NCBI GenBank assembly: GCA_964195315.1
Contig: CAXMOZ010000015.1
Coordinates: 31,995-95,994 of the forward strand
DNA length: 64,000 nucleotides
From: an uncultured Acidimicrobiia bacterium
GTDB taxonomy: Bacteria > Pseudomonadota > Gammaproteobacteria > GCA-001735895
Direction of reading: 5' to 3'
Positions 24,287 to 32,436 of this stretch are shown here, in pieces. Below the pieces are notes generated by a model. The model made no database searches. It had not been told where the DNA came from and saw only the letters and a program-made list of their open reading frames with translations. A program made the position numbers and the translations under genes. Every line of letters starts with the position of its first letter. The first letter of the stretch is position 1.

Positions 24287-25567
24287 TTAATTCGAGGCTG
24301 AATCCTCTACAGCCTCGTCGTAACTCAATATTTGGGTGCTTTCTATTGCCGAACCCGATGGATGAACCGCTGTTGCGGTGCTAGGTCCTTGCTGATCGAG
24401 TGGCACGGCACGGCTTACCGTCATTCGGTAAAGTGCGAATAGCCCAGTAAAAGCATGCACAACCGCAATTGCCCAGAACATCGCTTGCTCACCAAAGTGA
24501 TCCATTATACTGGCGACTAAAATCGGCCCGACTACGGCGCCTAACCCACTGGTTAAAACCAAAGCACCACTGGCTGCAATCATTTGATTAGGGTTCAAAT
24601 GGTCATTCGTGTAAGCAATGCAAACCGAGTACAACGGTAGCGCCAAGCCACCAAATAAAGCGACGGCTAGAAGCAACATGTTAGTAGAAAGCTGTGAGGC
24701 AAACACGCATAACACAGCAGCGACAGAAGTTAATAGTGTGGTAATGGTAAGAATAATACGTCTGTCAAAGCGGTCTGAAAGGGCACCAATGGGTGCTTGA
24801 AGAATCACAGTGCCAACCACGGCAGCCGTCATAAAATAAGAAATATATTCGACGTCAAGACCAATGCGTTGACCATAAACGGGGCCGAGTGCAAAAAAAG
24901 CAGCCGTAACCAGGCCGACTGCAAACATACTCACAATGCCAAGGGGAGAGAGGCGATAAAGCGCCAGTAAACTGATATTGACCGACTCTCGGTATTTTGG
25001 TGGAGAACCCGCAGATAACAATAATGGTACAACTGCCACCGATATCAGCACTGATGTTAAAATGAATAACGGATATTCACTTGGACTAGCCAGATTTAAA
25101 AGCAACTGTCCGCCGCCGACGCCGGCATAGGTCACTATCATATAGAGGGACAGTAACTTGCCTCTGTTTTGATTCGTTGCTCTATCGTTCAGCCAGCTTT
25201 CTGCAACAATATAAAGACCTGCAAAGCAAAAGCCACTAAGCAGCCTCAAGGCAATCCAGACGGGTACATCAATAAACAGCGCATGCAGCAAAATCGCCGC
25301 TGAGGCCAGTGCCGACAAAGCCGCAAATACCCGAATATGCCCCACTTGCTGAGTGAGTTTTGGTGTCAGGATTGAGCCTAGCAAAAAGCCGATATAAAAC
25401 GTCGACATGATTAAACCAGTGACTGTCGTCGGAAAACCTTCAAGGTCTGCGCGGATGGCTAAAAGAGTGCCCTGTAATCCATCGCCCAGCATTAAAATAC
25501 CAAAGCCAAGTAATAGCGCCCAACATGAAAATAGAGCGGATCGGAGGGTCGTCGTTTGGTTGGGCAA
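24287..25567 (-). CDS. MFS transporter (YcaD/YfkF-like)
   Basis: 426-aa ORF with about 12 TM helices and 6+6 MFS organisation. Confidence 0.8.
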   Translation of the reverse strand: MPNQTTTLRSALFSCWALLLGFGILMLGDGLQGTLLAIRADLEGFPTTVTGLIMSTFYIGFLLGSILTPKLTQQVGHIRVFAALSALASAAILLHALFIDVPVWIALRLLSGFCFAGLYIVAESWLNDRATNQNRGKLLSLYMIVTYAGVGGGQLLLNLASPSEYPLFILTSVLISVAVVPLLLSAGSPPKYRESVNISLLALYRLSPLGIVSMFAVGLVTAAFFALGPVYGQRIGLDVEYISYFMTAAVVGTVILQAPIGALSDRFDRRIILTITTLLTSVAAVLCVFASQLSTNMLLLAVALFGGLALPLYSVCIAYTNDHLNPNQMIAASGALVLTSGLGAVVGPILVASIMDHFGEQAMFWAIAVVHAFTGLFALYRMTVSRAVPLDQQGPSTATAVHPSGSAIESTQILSYDEAVEDSASN

Positions 25568-26018
25568 AGTTGTAATCCAGTTAAATAGTCATTGTTTATC
25601 AATCAATGCAAATCAATCAATAAAGCTTAGTATAGCGATAAAAACAGATTCAACTATGAATATATGAGTCTCAACATGTGCCTAATAAAGGCGCAATATT
25701 AAGGCAGTGGGGGCAAAATTCGGCATGGCTGGGCCCGGACTTCATATCAGGGTTAACCGAAGATGCGGTTGGCATATCGGCTATTGAAGCATTAGCCTGC
25801 ATTGGTGTTGCCGCTATTCTGGTCGGTGCTGTGTTTATAGCATTGGGTCTCGATCAGCCAGTGAACCTAAGGCCATCAGTCTGGATCTTTTTGATAATAA
25901 TGACGACAGGGTTGAGCATTTTAATGAAAGATTACGTAATGACATGGTCACCCCTGCGAATTCATCGTGAGCCGAACCATCTAAATATGGTGTTCAAATG
26001 GAAATCTGATCAGGGATC

Positions 26019-27197
26019 TTAGCTGCGCGTTTTCAGACGCCAAACAAGTCCAATAGAGAGCAAAACAAAAACAATCGCTAAGCTAACAGGGAGTCCATGT
26101 GGGCCAAATTCAACCATTGCCCAACCGCCCATTACCGAGCCAAATAATGCACCGATGCCCCAGATCACCGAAAATGCTGACATACCATCGATCAGTTCGG
26201 TGCCAGTAAATCGATCACCCAGCGATATAAGTGCAATCGAATATAATCCTAAACCTGCCGCACCCATGATGGCTAATGTTGGCCACATCATTAGTGAGCC
26301 GATTAGGGTAGGGAATACAAGTAGGGTAATTGCTGTCATAAGCGCGCAACACAACAGCAGCTTTTGATGAGAATAGTGATCAGCCAGCCAGCCAATGGGT
26401 AGCTGAAAGAAAACATTCGCTAGCACTAAAACTGTGAGCAAATTGGCCGAATCAGAAAGACTCAATCCGACCTTCATGCCATACACTGAGAACAGTGATA
26501 GTGACGCTGCATCGAAAAGTGAAAAAGCACAGACACAAGCCAATAACATGGGTGCTTTAAATGCAAAGCTGAAAATGCTCGATGAATTTGAATGGTCTGA
26601 CTCGGGTTGTTTTTCAAGCTGAAGAAAAAGCAGTGGAATAACGCCGACAATGACAATAATGGTTCCCAGTATGAAAGGAAGCCAGCCATCAATGCCGATA
26701 ATACTAATGATGAGCGGTCCAATACCGAAACTGGCAGACAGTATCGTACCGTAAAATGCCACAATTTTGCCACGATGTTGATCGCCAGCAAAACCGACAA
26801 TCCAGGCTTCGCTGAGTACAAATAAAACCGATATCGACATGCCCTGGATGAGACGAATCACAAACCAGGCGGAAAGTGTATCAAATTGTTTATAGCAGAG
26901 AATGGTCACTGCGGTAACCAATGCCGCGAAAATAGCTACGTTTCGACCCCCAAACCGTTTAGTAACAATAGGGATGACGGTTGAAAATAATAAAATGCCA
27001 AGCGGCATCATCGCGCCATTCAGACCGATCAGCTCACTCGAAACACCTCGATCCTCAAGAATTAAGGAGAGCAATGGATAAGTTAAACCAAGCGGAAATC
27101 CAAACACCGTAATAGCCGCGCAAGCCGCAATTAAATTGCGCCAGTTGGGTTGCCTATGGGCGGGTTTTTGCAAGCTTGAGACACTGTCCGTAATCAT
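26019..27197 (-). CDS. MFS transporter, paralog of the upstream MFS gene
   Basis: 392-aa ORF with about 12 TM helices. It shows local similarity to 24287-25567 (for example …SEAWIVGFAGDQHRGKIVAFYG… vs …AESWLNDRATNQNRGKLLSLYM…). Confidence 0.8.
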   Translation of the reverse strand: MITDSVSSLQKPAHRQPNWRNLIAACAAITVFGFPLGLTYPLLSLILEDRGVSSELIGLNGAMMPLGILLFSTVIPIVTKRFGGRNVAIFAALVTAVTILCYKQFDTLSAWFVIRLIQGMSISVLFVLSEAWIVGFAGDQHRGKIVAFYGTILSASFGIGPLIISIIGIDGWLPFILGTIIVIVGVIPLLFLQLEKQPESDHSNSSSIFSFAFKAPMLLACVCAFSLFDAASLSLFSVYGMKVGLSLSDSANLLTVLVLANVFFQLPIGWLADHYSHQKLLLCCALMTAITLLVFPTLIGSLMMWPTLAIMGAAGLGLYSIALISLGDRFTGTELIDGMSAFSVIWGIGALFGSVMGGWAMVEFGPHGLPVSLAIVFVLLSIGLVWRLKTRS

Positions 27198-27350: not shown

Positions 27351-29720
27351 ATGAATAAAACCTTTATCCTAATCTGTGCTCTGTTACTGGCGGTGATAGC
27401 CGCTATCGGCTACCTGATGCATCACTATTCAGTGATGGACTTGGTCGATACATCGGCTATCGCCGAGATGATCGCAGGTCTGGGATGGCTTGCTATACCA
27501 GCTTTCATTACCTTTGGTGCTTTGTTCACATCGGTGGGTTTACCGCGACAATTGGTCGCTTTTATTGGTGGCTATGTCTTTGGTACGGCAGTCGGTGTGG
27601 CGCTTGGCACTGTGGCAGCTGCCCTGGGTGCGATACTGACATTTTATGCGGCGCGCTGCCTGGCTCGCCCATTTGTGCTGCGAAAATACCCAAAAATAGT
27701 TTCAAAAATAGATCATTTCATTGACGATAGATTGTTCCTCAAAATCCTCCTGATTCGTTTTCTACCGTTTGGGACTAATTTAGCGACCAATCTTGCAGCA
27801 GGTGCTGCAGCCACGCCTATTCGACCTTTTGCTTTGGCTTCATTGATTGGCTATATCCCTCAGATGACCATTTTTGCTATAAGTGGGCACGGTGTTCGAG
27901 TGGAGTCTGACACGCAGCTAATATTAGCTGCCTGCCTATTTTTGATATCGATAGTGATTGGAAGTTACCTTTACTATCAACATCATCAAGCAGCGACTGA
28001 GTCGAAACAGAGCAAATTTAAGTGGCGCTTGATTGGTGTCGTAGGCTTGGTGATGTTGTCATTATTATCACTAAGTTATTGGGCCTGGTTCGGCAATCAT
28101 TCTCCGCACCGAGTCTTTATCAATGCCAAGGTATTAACCGTTAATCAAAACAACGACATTGCCGAAGCTGTGTCGATCCGTTACGGAATGATCGAAGCGG
28201 TGGGCAGCAATGAATCGATTCAAGCGCTGATTGATAAAGATACACTGGTGAGTGATTTGGCTGGAAACACATTAATCCCCGGCTTTATTGATGCCCATAG
28301 TCATTTTCCGAGTTCCGGTTTAATGGCCGTTAGTGTTAACTTGAGGTCACCCCCCATTGGTGAGATTGGGTCAATCGAAGATATTCGTCAGGCCTTATTG
28401 GAGAAAATCGAAATAGCCGATACTGATGATTGGATAATCGGCTTCGGATACGATGATTCGTTATTGGTCGAGCAACGCCATCCAACTCGATTAGAGCTTG
28501 ATCAACTGTCGAGCGAGATACCAGTTTACCTTTGGCATAGTTCAGGCCACATGGGCGTTGTTAATAGTGCTGGGTTAGCAAAGCTGGGGTTTGATGAAAA
28601 CTCAGAAGCACCCTCCGCTGGTGTCATAGGTCGAGATGTTCAGAGTGGTCAATTGAACGGTTTGTTACAGGAGGCGGCGGCTCCGCCGTTGGGCAAATTA
28701 GCTGAAGATTTATCGCTACTGGCCTACTATCGAATTCTACAAACAGCCAGCGATGACTATAGTCAATGGGGCATTACCACCGCGAACAGCGGCGCAGTCA
28801 ACACGCCATTATTGAAAGCACTGTCATGGGCCGCTCGTTTGCGCTTGTTACCATTTCGTCTTGTCGTATCACCCAGGCATGATGTTTTAGGTGAAAAAAT
28901 TCTAGCGGGACAATTTTATCCAGCCGACTTCAATAACGACTGGTTTGAGGTGGGCGCTGTGAAACTATTTGCCGATGGTAGCCCGCAGGGTTATACGGCC
29001 TATTTGACCGAACCTTATTTTAAACCGCCACAGGGACAACCTGACTATCGAGGTTTTCCTGCGATAGAGCAAAGCGCGTTGATTGAAACAATCGCCAAGT
29101 ATCGCAATGCAGGCATTCAACTGGCCATTCATGGCAATGGTGATGCGGCAATCGATAATGTCATAGAGGCCATCAGGTTGTCGAGCCAGGTCAATCAGGA
29201 TGATGCACGAACGATTTTAGTTCATGCCCAAATGTCGCGTAAAGATCAACTGGATGACATGCGCGAGTTAGGTATAACGCCGAGCTTCTTCAATTCGCAT
29301 ACCTATTACTGGGGTGATGTTCATAGCAAAAATGCGATGGGGCCAGAGCGAGCAGCACGGATAAGCCCTGCATCTAGTGCGGAAAGCATAGGGCTACGTT
29401 ATAGCTTTCATAGCGACGCGCCAGTGACACCGATCAATCCGTTACAGCTAATTTGGAGTGGAGTTAACCGGCAAACGATAGAAGGTTATGTGCTTGGTGC
29501 TAATGAACGAGTATCAATCATGAGCGCATTACGAGCAGTGACAATCGATGCTGCCTGGCAGATTTTTCAGGAAAGTAACCGTGGTTCGCTCGAGGTGGGT
29601 AAACACGCTGACTTAGTGATTCTCGAAGGTGATTTGCTCAGTGACAAACAAAGAATCCGTCAACGACGAATTCTGGAAACTATCGTCGCTGGAGAAACTT
29701 CATTCAGCTATCAACCGTAG
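27351..29720 (+). CDS. Fusion protein: N-terminal DedA/TVP38 (SNARE-associated) membrane domain + C-terminal amidohydrolase-family (Amidohydro_3-like) metal-dependent hydrolase
   Basis: 789-aa ORF. Residues about 1-230 form a hydrophobic TVP38/DedA-like domain (…FLPFGTNLATNLAAGAAA…). From about residue 300 it carries the amidohydrolase metal-binding motif (PGFIDAHSHF), with distal His/Asp residues (HGNGD…, FHSDAP). Confidence 0.65.
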   Translation: MNKTFILICALLLAVIAAIGYLMHHYSVMDLVDTSAIAEMIAGLGWLAIPAFITFGALFTSVGLPRQLVAFIGGYVFGTAVGVALGTVAAALGAILTFYAARCLARPFVLRKYPKIVSKIDHFIDDRLFLKILLIRFLPFGTNLATNLAAGAAATPIRPFALASLIGYIPQMTIFAISGHGVRVESDTQLILAACLFLISIVIGSYLYYQHHQAATESKQSKFKWRLIGVVGLVMLSLLSLSYWAWFGNHSPHRVFINAKVLTVNQNNDIAEAVSIRYGMIEAVGSNESIQALIDKDTLVSDLAGNTLIPGFIDAHSHFPSSGLMAVSVNLRSPPIGEIGSIEDIRQALLEKIEIADTDDWIIGFGYDDSLLVEQRHPTRLELDQLSSEIPVYLWHSSGHMGVVNSAGLAKLGFDENSEAPSAGVIGRDVQSGQLNGLLQEAAAPPLGKLAEDLSLLAYYRILQTASDDYSQWGITTANSGAVNTPLLKALSWAARLRLLPFRLVVSPRHDVLGEKILAGQFYPADFNNDWFEVGAVKLFADGSPQGYTAYLTEPYFKPPQGQPDYRGFPAIEQSALIETIAKYRNAGIQLAIHGNGDAAIDNVIEAIRLSSQVNQDDARTILVHAQMSRKDQLDDMRELGITPSFFNSHTYYWGDVHSKNAMGPERAARISPASSAESIGLRYSFHSDAPVTPINPLQLIWSGVNRQTIEGYVLGANERVSIMSALRAVTIDAAWQIFQESNRGSLEVGKHADLVILEGDLLSDKQRIRQRRILETIVAGETSFSYQP

Positions 29721-29755
29721 GGCGTTATTAGCGAAGCGTAATACGCCGCATGCGG
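29715..29755. repeat. REP-like palindromic element, copy 3 of 3 (truncated variant)
   Basis: Sequence ccgtagggcgttattagcgaagcgtaatacgccgcatgcgg shares 'ccgtagggcg' and 'gcgt[at]at[ac]cgccgcatg' with copy 2. The TAG stop of the 789-aa gene lies inside it. Confidence 0.5.
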
Positions 29756-29806: not shown

Positions 29807-30280
29807 CTAGTTGTTGATGATCGTTTCCCAGGCCTTTTCCGATTCAACTTTGTATTCTTTAAAGTTGCCATCCATCCAGCGGTCACGCCCTCGTGCAGCG
29901 TAGAAGGTGTACAGCTGGTCTTCGAATATTTGCCAGTGAGTGCCGTCGGTCTTTATAAGGCCTTCACCCAGGCTCAGTGCATTGGCACAGTGACCATTGT
30001 AGGCTGGTGAATATTGTTCAGGATTGGCGGCAAATAAATCGCGGTCGGCTTCAGTTGTAAATAGCCAATTCGCACCTTTCCATTCCGCCTTCCAGGTCTT
30101 GCTACCTTTGAAGGCTTTATGCGGATTGTTGGCGACAACGCTATGATAAGCAACCGTGTCGTGGCCACCAATGGCGATATCACCAAAGTAACTTTTACTG
30201 ACAGGCTCGCTGGCATGAACAGAAAACAAAGCTTGCGCAAGAGCCAATAGACTCAACAGTAGTACTCTTTGAAAGGACAT
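29807..30280 (-). CDS. Secreted YHS-domain-like protein
   Basis: 157-aa ORF with a signal peptide (LLLSLLALAQALFSVHA). The GYDTVAY/…YNGHCA… pattern resembles YHS/TRASH-type domains. Confidence 0.45.
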   Translation of the reverse strand: MSFQRVLLLSLLALAQALFSVHASEPVSKSYFGDIAIGGHDTVAYHSVVANNPHKAFKGSKTWKAEWKGANWLFTTEADRDLFAANPEQYSPAYNGHCANALSLGEGLIKTDGTHWQIFEDQLYTFYAARGRDRWMDGNFKEYKVESEKAWETIINN

Positions 30281-30417
30281 TTGTTATCTCCGTAATTTTG
30301 TTCAGTACAAAGATAAGAATCGTATTCGAAGTTTTAGTTCAACCTGGAAATCCAGGCTATAGGTCGCGTTTCGAAAAGAATATTCTTGATCGTGTTATAA
30401 GCTTGTCAGTCATTTAA

Positions 30418-31521
30418 TTGTGTGATTTCAAATTGATTAAAAAAAGCGCTTATCTGAACATTGAACCGAAAGCTTACCACGGCGCAATCGACTTTGAAGA
30501 GATTTCAGCCCTTGGCCTAACACCAGATGAAATTGTCGATTTCAGTGTCAATAGCAACCCTTTTGGCCCTGCTTCGGCCATCGTCGAAGCGCTGCAGTCT
30601 GCCACTATATCGCGTTATCCGGATAAGGCCTGCCTGGGTTTACGTCAGGCATTAGGGCGTCAGTTTAACTTGTCTCTAGATCAAATTATGGTGGGCAATG
30701 GCACGGCCGAATTACTTTGGCTGATCGCTTTTGGCTTTATTGAAAAGACTGACAAAGTGGCAATTTTGGAACCGACATTTGGTGAGTACCGCCGAAACGC
30801 CCGATTAATGGGCGGTGAAGTTTGTCAATGGCGAGCAGTCGTAGAGAATAATTTTGAGTTGGATGAAGTTGCAATCGAACAGCTAATAGTCCAACAACGA
30901 CCCACTATTCTTCACTTGTGCAGCCCCAATAACCCAACCGGTTATCAAGTGTCAACCCAGCTACTAGAGCGATGGTCATTGTTGTCGCCAGAAACGCTAT
31001 TTGTCGTAGACGAGGCATATGCACAATTTCTACCTCAATATGAATCAGCCATGCACACCAGGTTGCCGAATGTTCTAGTATTGCGTTCGATGACAAAAGA
31101 CTACAGCCTGGCTGGTATTCGCCTGGGTTATGTGACCGGCCCAGTTGATTTGATTCGTGTACTTGAACAGCTTGCAATTCCATGGAGCGTGAATGAATTT
31201 GCGCAAATAGCAGGTATCGCAGCAATAGCAGCGCAGTCTGAGTATGAATGCATGTGGCGTGACCTACGCGATGAAGCGACTCGGTTTAAAGCGGGATTGA
31301 GGGCTTTAGGCTACAGTCCTGTTGAGTCACCCATGCACTATTTTTTAATGGAAGTAGGCGATGCTCGACATTTGCGTGAACGGCTATTGTCAGAGGGAAT
31401 TTTGGTGCGCCTTTGCGAGTCTTACTATTTACCAAACTACATTCGACTATCAACGCAGTTGCCTGAACAAAACCAACGCTTACTGGATTTACTAAAGGTC
31501 GAAAAATCATTCCAGGCGTAA
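30418..31521 (+). CDS. Threonine-phosphate decarboxylase-like PLP enzyme (CobD/CobC family, class II aminotransferase fold)
   Basis: 367-aa ORF. By-eye alignment to CobD: DFSVNSNPFGP (vs DFSANINPLG), CSPNNPTG, VLRSMTKDYSLAGIRLGY (PLP-Lys region), IPWSVNEFA. The start codon is uncertain because the track start is a TTG. Confidence 0.65.
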   Translation: MCDFKLIKKSAYLNIEPKAYHGAIDFEEISALGLTPDEIVDFSVNSNPFGPASAIVEALQSATISRYPDKACLGLRQALGRQFNLSLDQIMVGNGTAELLWLIAFGFIEKTDKVAILEPTFGEYRRNARLMGGEVCQWRAVVENNFELDEVAIEQLIVQQRPTILHLCSPNNPTGYQVSTQLLERWSLLSPETLFVVDEAYAQFLPQYESAMHTRLPNVLVLRSMTKDYSLAGIRLGYVTGPVDLIRVLEQLAIPWSVNEFAQIAGIAAIAAQSEYECMWRDLRDEATRFKAGLRALGYSPVESPMHYFLMEVGDARHLRERLLSEGILVRLCESYYLPNYIRLSTQLPEQNQRLLDLLKVEKSFQA

Positions 31522-32436
31522 ATTATCGAGGTAGATGACTCGGGATTGTTTGAGGTTACTTGCAAAAAAATTAATGTTGGCTATGTTTTTGATATCCATT
31601 TGCCGTGTCTTTGGCGCCAGAATGACATCGGAAAGATTGATAGCAATCGAGTTCCAGCCGGGTTGCAGGCGAGTTCTTTGCTGGAAACGGTCATTATATA
31701 AATAGTCACCTTGCTGATGTTGTTGGTCATGAATACGCGTAGTGATCAATAAGGGTGAATTGTCCGGTAGATAAATGCTAAACAGTACACGATCAAAGCC
31801 TTTCCAGTTGTTTGGCAAAAAGTTTAAGGACGCACCTGAATACTTGTCTGTAGTGAGCTCGATGCGAGCAGAATAACCCCCATGAGCAGTAAAGCTTTTA
31901 TCAAGTGTGATATTGCCATTAGAAGACCAGCGATTAAGCTCAAGTTTGCTTTCAAAATCTGCCAGTAGTGGAAAATTTTTTCTTGCCATTTGCTCATCGG
32001 CTAAAGTGACTAGCAGCGGATATAGCTGAATGCAAAGCAGTGCCGTGACGATTACTTTGAATTTAATGTCGAGTAATTGAGTGTTAGCCGATTTTGGACG
32101 ACGAAAAAATGCCAGGGCACTCAAGCCACCGAGTATGTTTCTGAGAATGTCTTGCCAGCCAGCTTGCCTGCCAATGAAAAACTGAATCGACTCGATGAAC
32201 ACACCGGCGACAAAACAAATGCCAACAATCCAGTAAAGTTGGTGAGCTTGTGTTAATTGCTGAAGAAACGATAAGTGCTTTAAAAGTAGAAATATCGCAA
32301 TCCCAAAAAAGGCGATATGACCTAAGTTCCACGCGATTCTAAATGATCGCGTGGGGACAATATCAGAACTGCCGGTAAAAAATAAAACGAATGAAAGAAA
32401 TAAAACTATGCCGAGTAGTAAGCTAGTTTTTCTCAT
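31507..32436 (-). CDS. VanZ-like membrane protein with a C-terminal extracytoplasmic domain of unknown function
   Basis: 309-aa ORF. The N-terminal roughly 150 aa has 4 TM helices typical of VanZ-like proteins. The C-terminal roughly 150 aa is soluble and beta-rich (…GWNSIAINLSD… NINFFASNLKQSRVIYLDNLRLE). Confidence 0.4.
   Translation of the reverse strand: MRKTSLLLGIVLFLSFVLFFTGSSDIVPTRSFRIAWNLGHIAFFGIAIFLLLKHLSFLQQLTQAHQLYWIVGICFVAGVFIESIQFFIGRQAGWQDILRNILGGLSALAFFRRPKSANTQLLDIKFKVIVTALLCIQLYPLLVTLADEQMARKNFPLLADFESKLELNRWSSNGNITLDKSFTAHGGYSARIELTTDKYSGASLNFLPNNWKGFDRVLFSIYLPDNSPLLITTRIHDQQHQQGDYLYNDRFQQRTRLQPGWNSIAINLSDVILAPKTRQMDIKNIANINFFASNLKQSRVIYLDNLRLE

Follow-up and report, generated by a model that had tools for sequence, protein, structure and literature searches.

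To our knowledge, undecaprenyl phosphate and phosphatidylethanolamine are the only cargoes so far assigned to bacterial DedA/VTT proteins, and we know of no bacterial cargo for the COG0398 (YdjX/TVP38) branch, the DedA branch closest to eukaryotic, including human, TMEM41B and VMP1. Earlier cargo assignments began from a DedA gene that was adjacent or fused to the gene for a known lipid-pathway enzyme. Here we analyze a 64,000-nt stretch of contig CAXMOZ010000015.1 (assembly GCA_964195315.1; hereafter, the window) from an uncultured gammaproteobacterium, in which one gene encodes a VTT/DedA domain of probable YdjX type joined to an Amidohydro_3-type metal hydrolase. Both protein families are known; we know of no earlier description of an amidohydrolase as a DedA partner. 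The initial annotation of this gene was aware of no characterized example, and we likewise found no paper pairing a DedA/VTT protein with an amidohydrolase in the searchable literature. What makes the locus valuable is not so much the fusion as the gene pair it revealed, a VTT and an amidohydrolase gene that are conserved together and translationally coupled.

Several described systems resemble parts of this arrangement. DedA and PAP2 genes are adjacent in some genomes and fused in others, which has been read as successive steps on one lipid (bioRxiv 10.1101/2022.02.03.479048). As in these modules of undecaprenyl-phosphate recycling (UptA-type), a DedA protein is here adjacent or fused to a membrane enzyme predicted to face the periplasm; in the UptA-type modules the enzyme is taken to act at the outer face before the flip. 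Unlike in DedA-PAP2, the partner is not an integral PAP2 phosphatase but a large soluble-type (beta/alpha)8 metal amidohydrolase anchored by a single helix, and the VTT protein is probably of the COG0398/YdjX type, a type not considered to flip undecaprenyl phosphate (PMC10127716). Other reported DedA fusion partners include LPG synthase, CDP-alcohol phosphatidyltransferase and phospholipase D (PMC10193950, Fig. 5), as well as pyridine-nucleotide disulfide oxidoreductase, rhodanese and PAP2 (PMC10127716). The window gene shares with these the Rosetta-stone joining of DedA to an enzyme that has been used to infer the lipid handled by the DedA domain. It differs from them in that an Amidohydro_3 partner is in neither of these two lists, and in that the fusion appears very young, restricted to one uncultured clade and reversible.

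On the enzyme side, the closest described proteins are YtcJ-like members of Amidohydro_3 (PF07969). These include secreted metal-dependent bile salt hydrolases (PMC13081902) and the epsilon-lysine acylase SmELA (PMC10699109), both of which cleave amphipathic N-acyl amides. Such characterized members are exported. The window hydrolase shares the predicted fold and the metal-ligand set of this family, as seen in the solved YtcJ-like structures 3ICJ and 3IGH, though it is only 24-25% identical to the solved structures, and its clade differs in having an N-terminal anchor that looks non-cleaved as well as a VTT partner.

The open reading frame (ORF) is a genuine gene that encodes a single polypeptide, comprising a polytopic VTT/DedA region, a short K/R-rich linker, a transmembrane (TM) helix and a complete binuclear-metal amidohydrolase (Table 1). 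Consistent with the two domains named in the initial annotation, which had also proposed a single polypeptide, Pfam profile VTT_dom (PF09335) matches residues 64-180 (27540-27890) over 122 of its 123 positions with 63.0 bits, against a curated cut-off of 33.9 bits, and Amidohydro_3 matches residues 300-783 over profile positions 2-470 of 472 with 316.9 bits, against a cut-off of 29.7 bits. The names given by JGI to the fused protein, YdjX (TVP38/TMEM64 family) and predicted amidohydrolase YtcJ, agree with both assignments.

We modeled the structure of the fused protein (predicted local distance difference test, pLDDT, 87; predicted template-modeling score, pTM, 0.72). DedA proteins are recognized by re-entrant hairpins that turn at conserved Pro/Gly residues, with flanking TM helices (Okawa et al., bioRxiv 10.1101/2020.12.18.423352). 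The VTT region follows the order N-terminal TM helix, re-entrant loop 1, TM helix, K/R-rich extramembrane helices (residues 99-127), re-entrant loop 2, TM helix and C-terminal TM helix. Two helix pairs are predicted, 45-61/66-77 with a turn at G63-L-P65 and 128-137/143-152 with a turn at L138-P-F-G; each is followed by a long predicted helix (79-112 and 157-179, respectively), and helices at 3-25 and 186-216 flank the whole. As modeled, the VTT part thus fits the DedA plan of two re-entrant hairpins turning at Pro/Gly with a TM helix after each. With regard to the COG0398 branch, the tip of re-entrant loop 1, FTSVGLPRQLVAF, contains no D or E. JGI gives the YdjX (TVP38/TMEM64 family) name to relatives of the protein as well. 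No solved VTT/DedA relative was found by sequence, nor by a fold search using the full model.

The hydrolase part carries the motif PGFIDAHSHF and a complete set of metal ligands, namely the HxH pair H316 and H318, the bridging lysine K538, the histidines H594 and H625, and D689. These residues are invariant in 14 relatives and align with the equivalent residues of 3ICJ. In Foldseek searches, the modeled hydrolase matched 3IGH (E = 1e-30, TM-score 0.81) and 3ICJ (E = 1e-29, TM-score 0.80; both target-normalized). The model thus places the hydrolase among the solved YtcJ-like structures, as a (beta/alpha)8 barrel with a composite beta domain.

The initial annotation noted that the two families normally occur as separate proteins, and this is what we observe in close relatives. 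The nearest unfused hydrolases (74-82% identity) are only 552-578 aa long, and wherever upstream DNA exists (L001-L004, L008, L094 and L095; L numbers denote our loci), they are immediately preceded, in the same orientation, by a separate gene for a VTT protein of 216-231 aa. In total, the two genes are split and adjacent in L001-L004, L008, L010-L018, L020, L026, L094 and L095, and fused in the window, L005-L007, L009 and L089-L092, a census that rests on ~20 loci, 4 of them obtained by a metagenome scan. The same two proteins are therefore adjacent in some genomes and fused in others, the Rosetta-stone pattern that defines DedA-enzyme modules.

Because close relatives have two genes, and the two states differ by a single base, a sequencing or assembly frameshift or a chimeric contig could in principle have wrongly joined them. 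At residues ~220-300, where the initial annotation had allowed for such an artefact, the frame continues unbroken across the junction in the window as well as in L005/L006, L007, L009, L089, L090/L091 and L092, for all of which DNA was recovered. A search of 5.8 billion proteins returned the fused form in seven clusters of 789-794 aa with 80-100% identity, and a protein identical to that of the window occurs on 10 contigs. Overall, independent assemblies (JGI, ENA, NCBI and Logan) have yielded at least eight distinct fused sequences with 80-100% identity, whose frame stays intact across many substitutions, datasets and assemblers. The fusion thus recurs in other genomes, where the initial annotation had suggested looking for it, though in one lineage only, the genes being separate in its relatives. 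Furthermore, the former hydrolase start codon has decayed to TTT or TTA in some fused genes, which is expected only of a real and sufficiently old fusion and so speaks against an artefact. Finally, both halves evolve under purifying selection, with ratios of nonsynonymous to synonymous substitution (dN/dS) between fused genes that range from 0.12 to 0.19 in the VTT part and from 0.08 to 0.15 in the hydrolase part; selection on the 18-residue linker is more relaxed (0.12-1.0). We consider the artefact explanation effectively refuted, its remaining probability being negligible. In one fused homologue (L092, 702-2944), the amidohydrolase part shifts frame near 2603-2627, reflecting either a pseudogene or an assembly error of that metagenome contig.

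We compared the junction between fused and split loci at the codon level. In L002 and L093-L095, the two ORFs are in frame and parted by a TAA alone, followed at once by ATG or GTG. In all fused loci compared by codon (the window, L005, L007 and L090), AAA replaces this stop, and the old start site reads TTT in the window, TTA in L007 and GTG in L005 and L090. The linker thus combines the 3′ end of the VTT gene, the stop codon that once closed it and the region where the hydrolase gene used to start. A -1 frameshift, which we also considered as the cause of the fusion, was dropped, as L002 and L093-L095 show an in-frame TAA-ATG/GTG ancestor and a stop substitution.

Two split loci have a different junction. 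In L001 (2026-2088) and L008 (1715-1775), the linker read in the hydrolase frame is still that of the fused genes (VTESKKNKM), but an insertion of +4 or +1 nt a few codons ahead of it makes the VTT frame run into a TGA. Since the hydrolase frame keeps this linker and only the VTT frame has been shifted, these loci are secondary re-splits of a fused ancestor, and illustrate on a small scale how a natural fusion can return to two genes.

Neighbor-joining trees of ~20 loci agree in overall topology between the VTT and hydrolase parts. In the VTT tree, all fused genes together with L001 and L008 form one clade with 100% bootstrap support. In the hydrolase tree, the window and L007 instead group beside the split L093-L095 (97% bootstrap), which conflicts with a simple single origin and counts against that part of our interpretation. 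Either one TAA-to-AAA event was followed by recombination near the junction, which we consider likely, or the stop codon was lost twice independently. The most parsimonious path from these comparisons would have four steps: (i) the VTT stop and hydrolase start overlapped (ATGA), (ii) the genes came to abut in frame (TAA-ATG/GTG), (iii) a TAA-to-AAA change removed the stop and fused them, and (iv) the unused start decayed, as far as TTT in the window, while one sub-lineage re-split through a +1 or +4 nt insertion. The fusion is young and belongs to a single lineage, the uncultured clade of the window, having arisen by stop-codon loss within a conserved two-gene operon. Its origin is ordinary and well resolved, and the locus shows clearly, on a small scale, how genes can fuse when a stop codon is lost and later separate again through a frameshift. 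Taken together, we are highly confident that the window ORF is a genuine gene derived from this conserved pair.

No independent VTT-Amidohydro_3 fusion was found among the top 120 VTT-only matches, a weak negative because the known fused proteins P0001-P0007 were also missing from that search with the VTT half, despite containing an exact or near-identical VTT sequence. Similarly, none was found among the top 150 of 1.84 billion representatives, where the 50% cluster of the window protein is itself represented by an unfused protein, which weakens this negative too. The long N-terminal extensions of the hydrolase homologues P0361, P0329 and P0364 are not VTT domains. P0329 (704 aa), a distant family member, has a ~175-aa N-terminal membrane region with a weak, below-cut-off bestrophin-like match at residues 25-128 (E = 0.002) and may be another, unrelated membrane-domain fusion. 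P0346, from the same amidohydrolase family, carries a C-terminal alpha/beta hydrolase domain.

A hydrophobic helix lies between the two domains (hydropathy peak 227-245, predicted helix 226-247), as the initial annotation had noted in describing an extra TM segment. This helix is homologous to the N-terminus of unfused relatives, which have MKxRW followed by a hydrophobic stretch. All 99 of 99 hydrolase relatives with a recognizable first strand motif share the same N-terminal pattern, a short K/R-containing start followed by an uncharged stretch, mostly of 15-30 residues (10-14 in four), and then only ~7-15 residues to the HRVFIN strand. The extra helix is therefore the hydrolase's own ancestral N-terminal signal anchor and not a new element. 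Because the anchor is present in all 99 relatives examined, the fusion did not create membrane tethering, and the earlier suggestion that a covalent fusion in itself predicts a membrane-tethered hydrolase does not hold: the enzyme is anchored with or without it.

The orientation of the hydrolase can be estimated from the VTT region. Both termini of TMEM41B are experimentally cytosolic (bioRxiv 10.1101/2020.12.18.423352). In the window protein, the charge and hydropathy map marks as cytoplasmic the N-terminal MNK and the K/R-rich segments 99-127 and 219-226. With both VTT ends in the cytoplasm, the extra helix would cross outward and place the hydrolase on the periplasmic face. We therefore think it probable that the hydrolase faces the periplasm within ~10 residues of the membrane, and unfused relatives would reach the same position by their own N-terminal anchor. 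Signal peptides or SLH cell-surface domains occur elsewhere in the hydrolase family (SLH in P0385), which fits an extracytoplasmic location.

To ask how widely the pair is conserved, we scanned one genome per GTDB species and recovered 80 hydrolase loci. A VTT gene lies directly upstream in 12 of these, among them Amphritea, three Neptunomonas, a Bugula-associated "Chromatiales" bacterium, two Granulosicoccaceae and the metagenome-assembled genome (MAG) L011. In these 12 loci the VTT stop nearly always overlaps the hydrolase start (ATGA, or ATGAGTAA), and such overlap of stop and start codons is a usual sign of translational coupling. This adjacency with overlapping codons persists from 83% down to ~50% hydrolase identity and across several families. 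The pair is the sole conserved element of its neighborhood: flanks differ in every genus, with neighbors as varied as ZnuA, GGDEF/EAL, luciferase-like, KARI, homocysteine methyltransferase, Thg1 and rhomboid genes. Since the pair alone is conserved among changing neighbors, and the VTT and hydrolase trees share their overall shape, the two proteins may act as a functional unit. It is this conserved, translationally coupled pair, and not the fusion alone, that argues for functional coupling.

The same data bear on the alternative that the two genes merely share an operon, that stop-codon loss was tolerated because the two topologies are compatible, and that the VTT protein serves general membrane homeostasis unrelated to the hydrolase substrate. 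One substitution is enough to fuse the genes from the TAA-ATG arrangement, the fusion has reverted in L001 and L008, the dN/dS of the linker reaches ~1, and most hydrolase orthologues have no adjacent VTT gene, all of which this alternative would accommodate. It explains less readily why overlapping-codon adjacency is kept over such a range of identity and of families while every other neighbor changes, or why both trees are alike in shape, and published cases of DedA adjacency or fusion have been read as functional pathway links. We regard an accident of this kind as rather improbable.

Hydrolase loci outside the pair provide hints as to substrate. In 50 of the 80 loci, mainly from Halieaceae/Halioglobus/Haliea, the hydrolase gene directly follows a pair of genes for acyl-CoA dehydrogenase (ACAD)-like proteins of ~411 and 375 aa, the second having a weak middle domain, as in heteromeric ACADs (L021-L088 loci; for example, L042 1471-5617 and L085 1596-5683). 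Estimated gaps are mostly a few to ~100 nt, and the arrangement looks like an operon for that reason. In 3 of the 80 loci, from Cellvibrionaceae (Pseudomaricurvus and relatives), the hydrolase gene is immediately preceded by a same-strand gene for a TonB-dependent receptor, ~130-280 nt away (L025 1218-5704, L048 1329-5608 and L062 1522-5650), a neighbor that hints at an imported substrate. Some locus contigs sit in MAGs labeled Polaribacter sp., Myxococcales or Enterobacteriaceae (L010, JBLHID010000075.1; L029; L054; L035). The VTT gene and junction of L010 are identical to those of L001, and the odd taxon labels of these MAGs with a gammaproteobacterial-type locus are probably binning errors.

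From these contexts, and by analogy to the DedA-PAP2 and PF07969 systems, we propose that the hydrolase would cleave an amide (or related) bond of a membrane-embedded amphipathic molecule at the outer leaflet, and that the VTT domain would move the substrate or the lipid product between leaflets. The fusion would fix 1:1 stoichiometry and proximity and add no new activity. A lipid-linked or amphipathic amide is a plausible substrate class given this context. Whether the two proteins act sequentially on one lipid is, in our estimate, evenly poised, and we lean slightly towards the reading as a whole, up to and including sequential action on one amphipathic molecule. The favored direction would be retrograde and catabolic, with an exogenous N-acyl-type amide cleaved in the periplasm and its lipid product flipped inward. 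We lean towards an inward flip because VTT-less orthologues adjoin TonB-dependent receptor or ACAD genes and because PAP2-DedA pairs work in that order, and we put this direction forward only tentatively. The more specific version of this proposal, a dedicated two-step system in which an anchored periplasmic amidohydrolase cleaves a specific amphipathic amide and a COG0398 DedA protein carries either this amide, for cleavage, or the resulting lipid, after it, across the inner membrane, is possible rather than probable.

Several observations weigh against this interpretation. First, ~65 of the 80 orthologue loci have no VTT gene within 4 kb, which shows that the hydrolase does not depend on a VTT partner next to it, and the ACAD context is mostly that of one family (Halieaceae) and may be inherited synteny. 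Second, the reversion in L001 and L008, together with a linker that is near-neutral in some comparisons, suggests that covalent linkage is probably not strongly selected. Third, the hydrolase reaches the cut-off of no NCBIfam equivalog (guanine/adenine deaminase, imidazolonepropionase, dihydroorotase, prolidase and others): its highest score, 45.9 bits, falls well short of the cut-offs of 233-703, and every match is a short terminal stretch. The nearest solved structures, 3ICJ and 3IGH, are themselves uncharacterized Pyrococcus hydrolases. Finally, model confidence is lowest in the linker (residues 217-224), and a signal peptidase may cut after the extra helix, at SLS|YW.

A further point concerns the direction of transport. 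The nearest VTT homologues outside the amidohydrolase-paired clade (38-43% identity) are encoded in overlapping operons of GT2, VTT and PMT_2 (ArnT-like GT-C) genes (L097 2689-5794 and L098 2725-5900). In Pseudodesulfovibrio (L099 2528-4813), a GT2 gene and an 85-aa ORF precede the VTT gene, with a convergent PAP2 gene beside it. By gene order, a YdjX-type VTT protein here stands where a three-component system of lipid-linked glycosylation (GT2, flippase and GT-C; PMC11127046) has its flippase, or where a carrier recycler would act, a placement for which we found no description in the literature examined. As in the VTT-amidohydrolase pair, the VTT gene is translationally coupled to that of a periplasm-facing enzyme, in this case one with a lipid-linked substrate; the window gene, by contrast, has no accompanying glycosyltransferase, and the partner predicted to face the periplasm is a hydrolase, not a transferase. 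Another VTT homologue (L096 3501-5364, 44% identity) lies beside a convergent Amidohydro_2 (PF04909) gene on the opposite strand. As Amidohydro_2 is a different family and on the opposite strand, this adjacency is probably coincidental.

The GT2-VTT-PMT_2 context suits an outward flippase at least equally well, and in this respect also tells against our proposal. The VTT protein could export an endogenous lipid with an N-acylated, N-formylated or N-acetylated head group, such as a polyprenyl-phosphate aminosugar or an aminolipid, which the anchored amidohydrolase would deacylate at the outer leaflet, as a periplasmic counterpart of ArnD-type deformylation or of three-component glycosylation. 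In favor of this, the closest outside homologues occupy the flippase position of their operons, with the third following a GT2 gene and lying beside a PAP2 phosphatase gene; PetA has been proposed to move phosphatidylethanolamine outward (PMC10193950); and the active domain of the hydrolase would lie within ~10 residues of the membrane. Set against this, none of the loci examined has a GT2, GT-C or other lipid-carrier gene alongside the VTT-amidohydrolase pair, orthologous hydrolases are linked instead to uptake and beta-oxidation-type genes, and the VTT protein of GT2-VTT-PMT_2 operons could equally be a carrier recycler, as proposed for UptA. Outward export followed by deacylation is a viable alternative that we consider rather unlikely.

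The VTT protein might also aid the biogenesis or energizing of the hydrolase, through membrane insertion, export or maintenance of the proton-motive force, instead of transporting its substrate. Translational coupling of the gene pair would suit such a role, and E. coli DedA double mutants export periplasmic amidases poorly according to a report as cited in PMC10193950. That effect, however, concerns Tat-exported cell-wall amidases of an unrelated family, whereas the window hydrolase has no twin-arginine motif, and a dedicated adjacent VTT partner is missing from the ~65 orthologue loci mentioned above. Assistance of this kind is highly unlikely in our assessment.

Should the pair prove to be such a dedicated two-step system, knowing the hydrolase substrate would for the first time define a lipid that bacterial proteins of the YdjX/TVP38 branch carry, and the pair would represent a new route of N-acyl lipid processing or scavenging in marine gammaproteobacteria. 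The pair links a purifiable and screenable soluble-type enzyme to a probable COG0398 protein both through a conserved, translationally coupled operon and through a fusion that arose naturally. It occurs in the cultured and genetically approachable Neptunomonas japonica, N. qingdaonensis and Amphritea, which makes the idea directly testable.

Table 1. Features of the fused gene and its flanks (positions in the window)
Feature	Position	Strand	Basis
Fused gene, complete	27351..29720	+	ORF list; ATG start, 789 codons and TAG stop
VTT/DedA membrane region, residues 1-208	27351..27974	+	PF09335 match, hydropathy/charge map, predicted helices
Cytoplasmic linker, residues 209-226 (YQHHQAATESKQSKFKWR)	27975..28028	+	Codon-level comparison with split relatives
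K222 codon AAA, site of ancestral VTT TAA stop	28014..28016	+	Comparison with split relatives
F223 codon TTT, site of ancestral hydrolase start, no longer a start codon	28017..28019	+	ATG/GTG in split relatives
Extra TM helix, residues 227-247	28029..28091	+	Hydropathy, predicted helix, homology to unfused N-termini
Amidohydro_3/YtcJ-type metal hydrolase domain, residues 248-789	28092..29717	+	PF07969, metal ligands, fold match
Metal-ligand codons	H316 28296-28298; H318 28302-28304; K538 28962-28964; H594 29130-29132; H625 29223-29225; D689 29415-29417	+	
Stop codon of fused gene	29718-29720	+	
Single imperfect hairpin directly after the stop, between convergent genes	29721..29747	.	Fold and repeat search
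MFS transporter gene	24287-25567	-	ORF list
MFS transporter gene	26019-27197	-	ORF list

The flanks of the fused gene were also examined. The initial annotation had the gene ending inside a repetitive extragenic palindromic (REP)-like element, an assignment that we reject: the hairpin at this position begins only after the stop codon, is present in one copy in the window, the only sequence searched, at ≤3 mismatches, and folds no better than shuffled sequence (z = -1.3; 20 of 200 shuffles equally good). Its 13-nt arm, with 2 mismatches allowed, has 3 matches in the window compared with 1.06 expected by chance. No T-run follows the hairpin, and a terminator scan did not report it.

Downstream, a block at 29807-32436 begins with a convergent gene for a 157-aa protein with a weak YHS-domain match, whose 3′ end lies ~90 nt from the stop of the fused gene, followed by a class I/II aminotransferase gene (30418-31521) and a gene for a 309-aa protein with a VanZ-like N-terminal region (31507-32436). 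This YHS-like/aminotransferase/VanZ-like block is syntenic in L005, L007, L094 and L095, and the longer downstream order (YHS-like, aminotransferase, VanZ-like, DUF6524, Fpg and MipA) is confined to the clade of the window; it provides no functional lead or evident link to the fused gene. Upstream, the fused gene is divergent from two MFS genes, both on the minus strand, as the initial annotation had described. The ~450-nt spacer between these (25568-26018) holds a sole ORF of 114 aa with a GTG start, on the opposite strand at 25678-26022.

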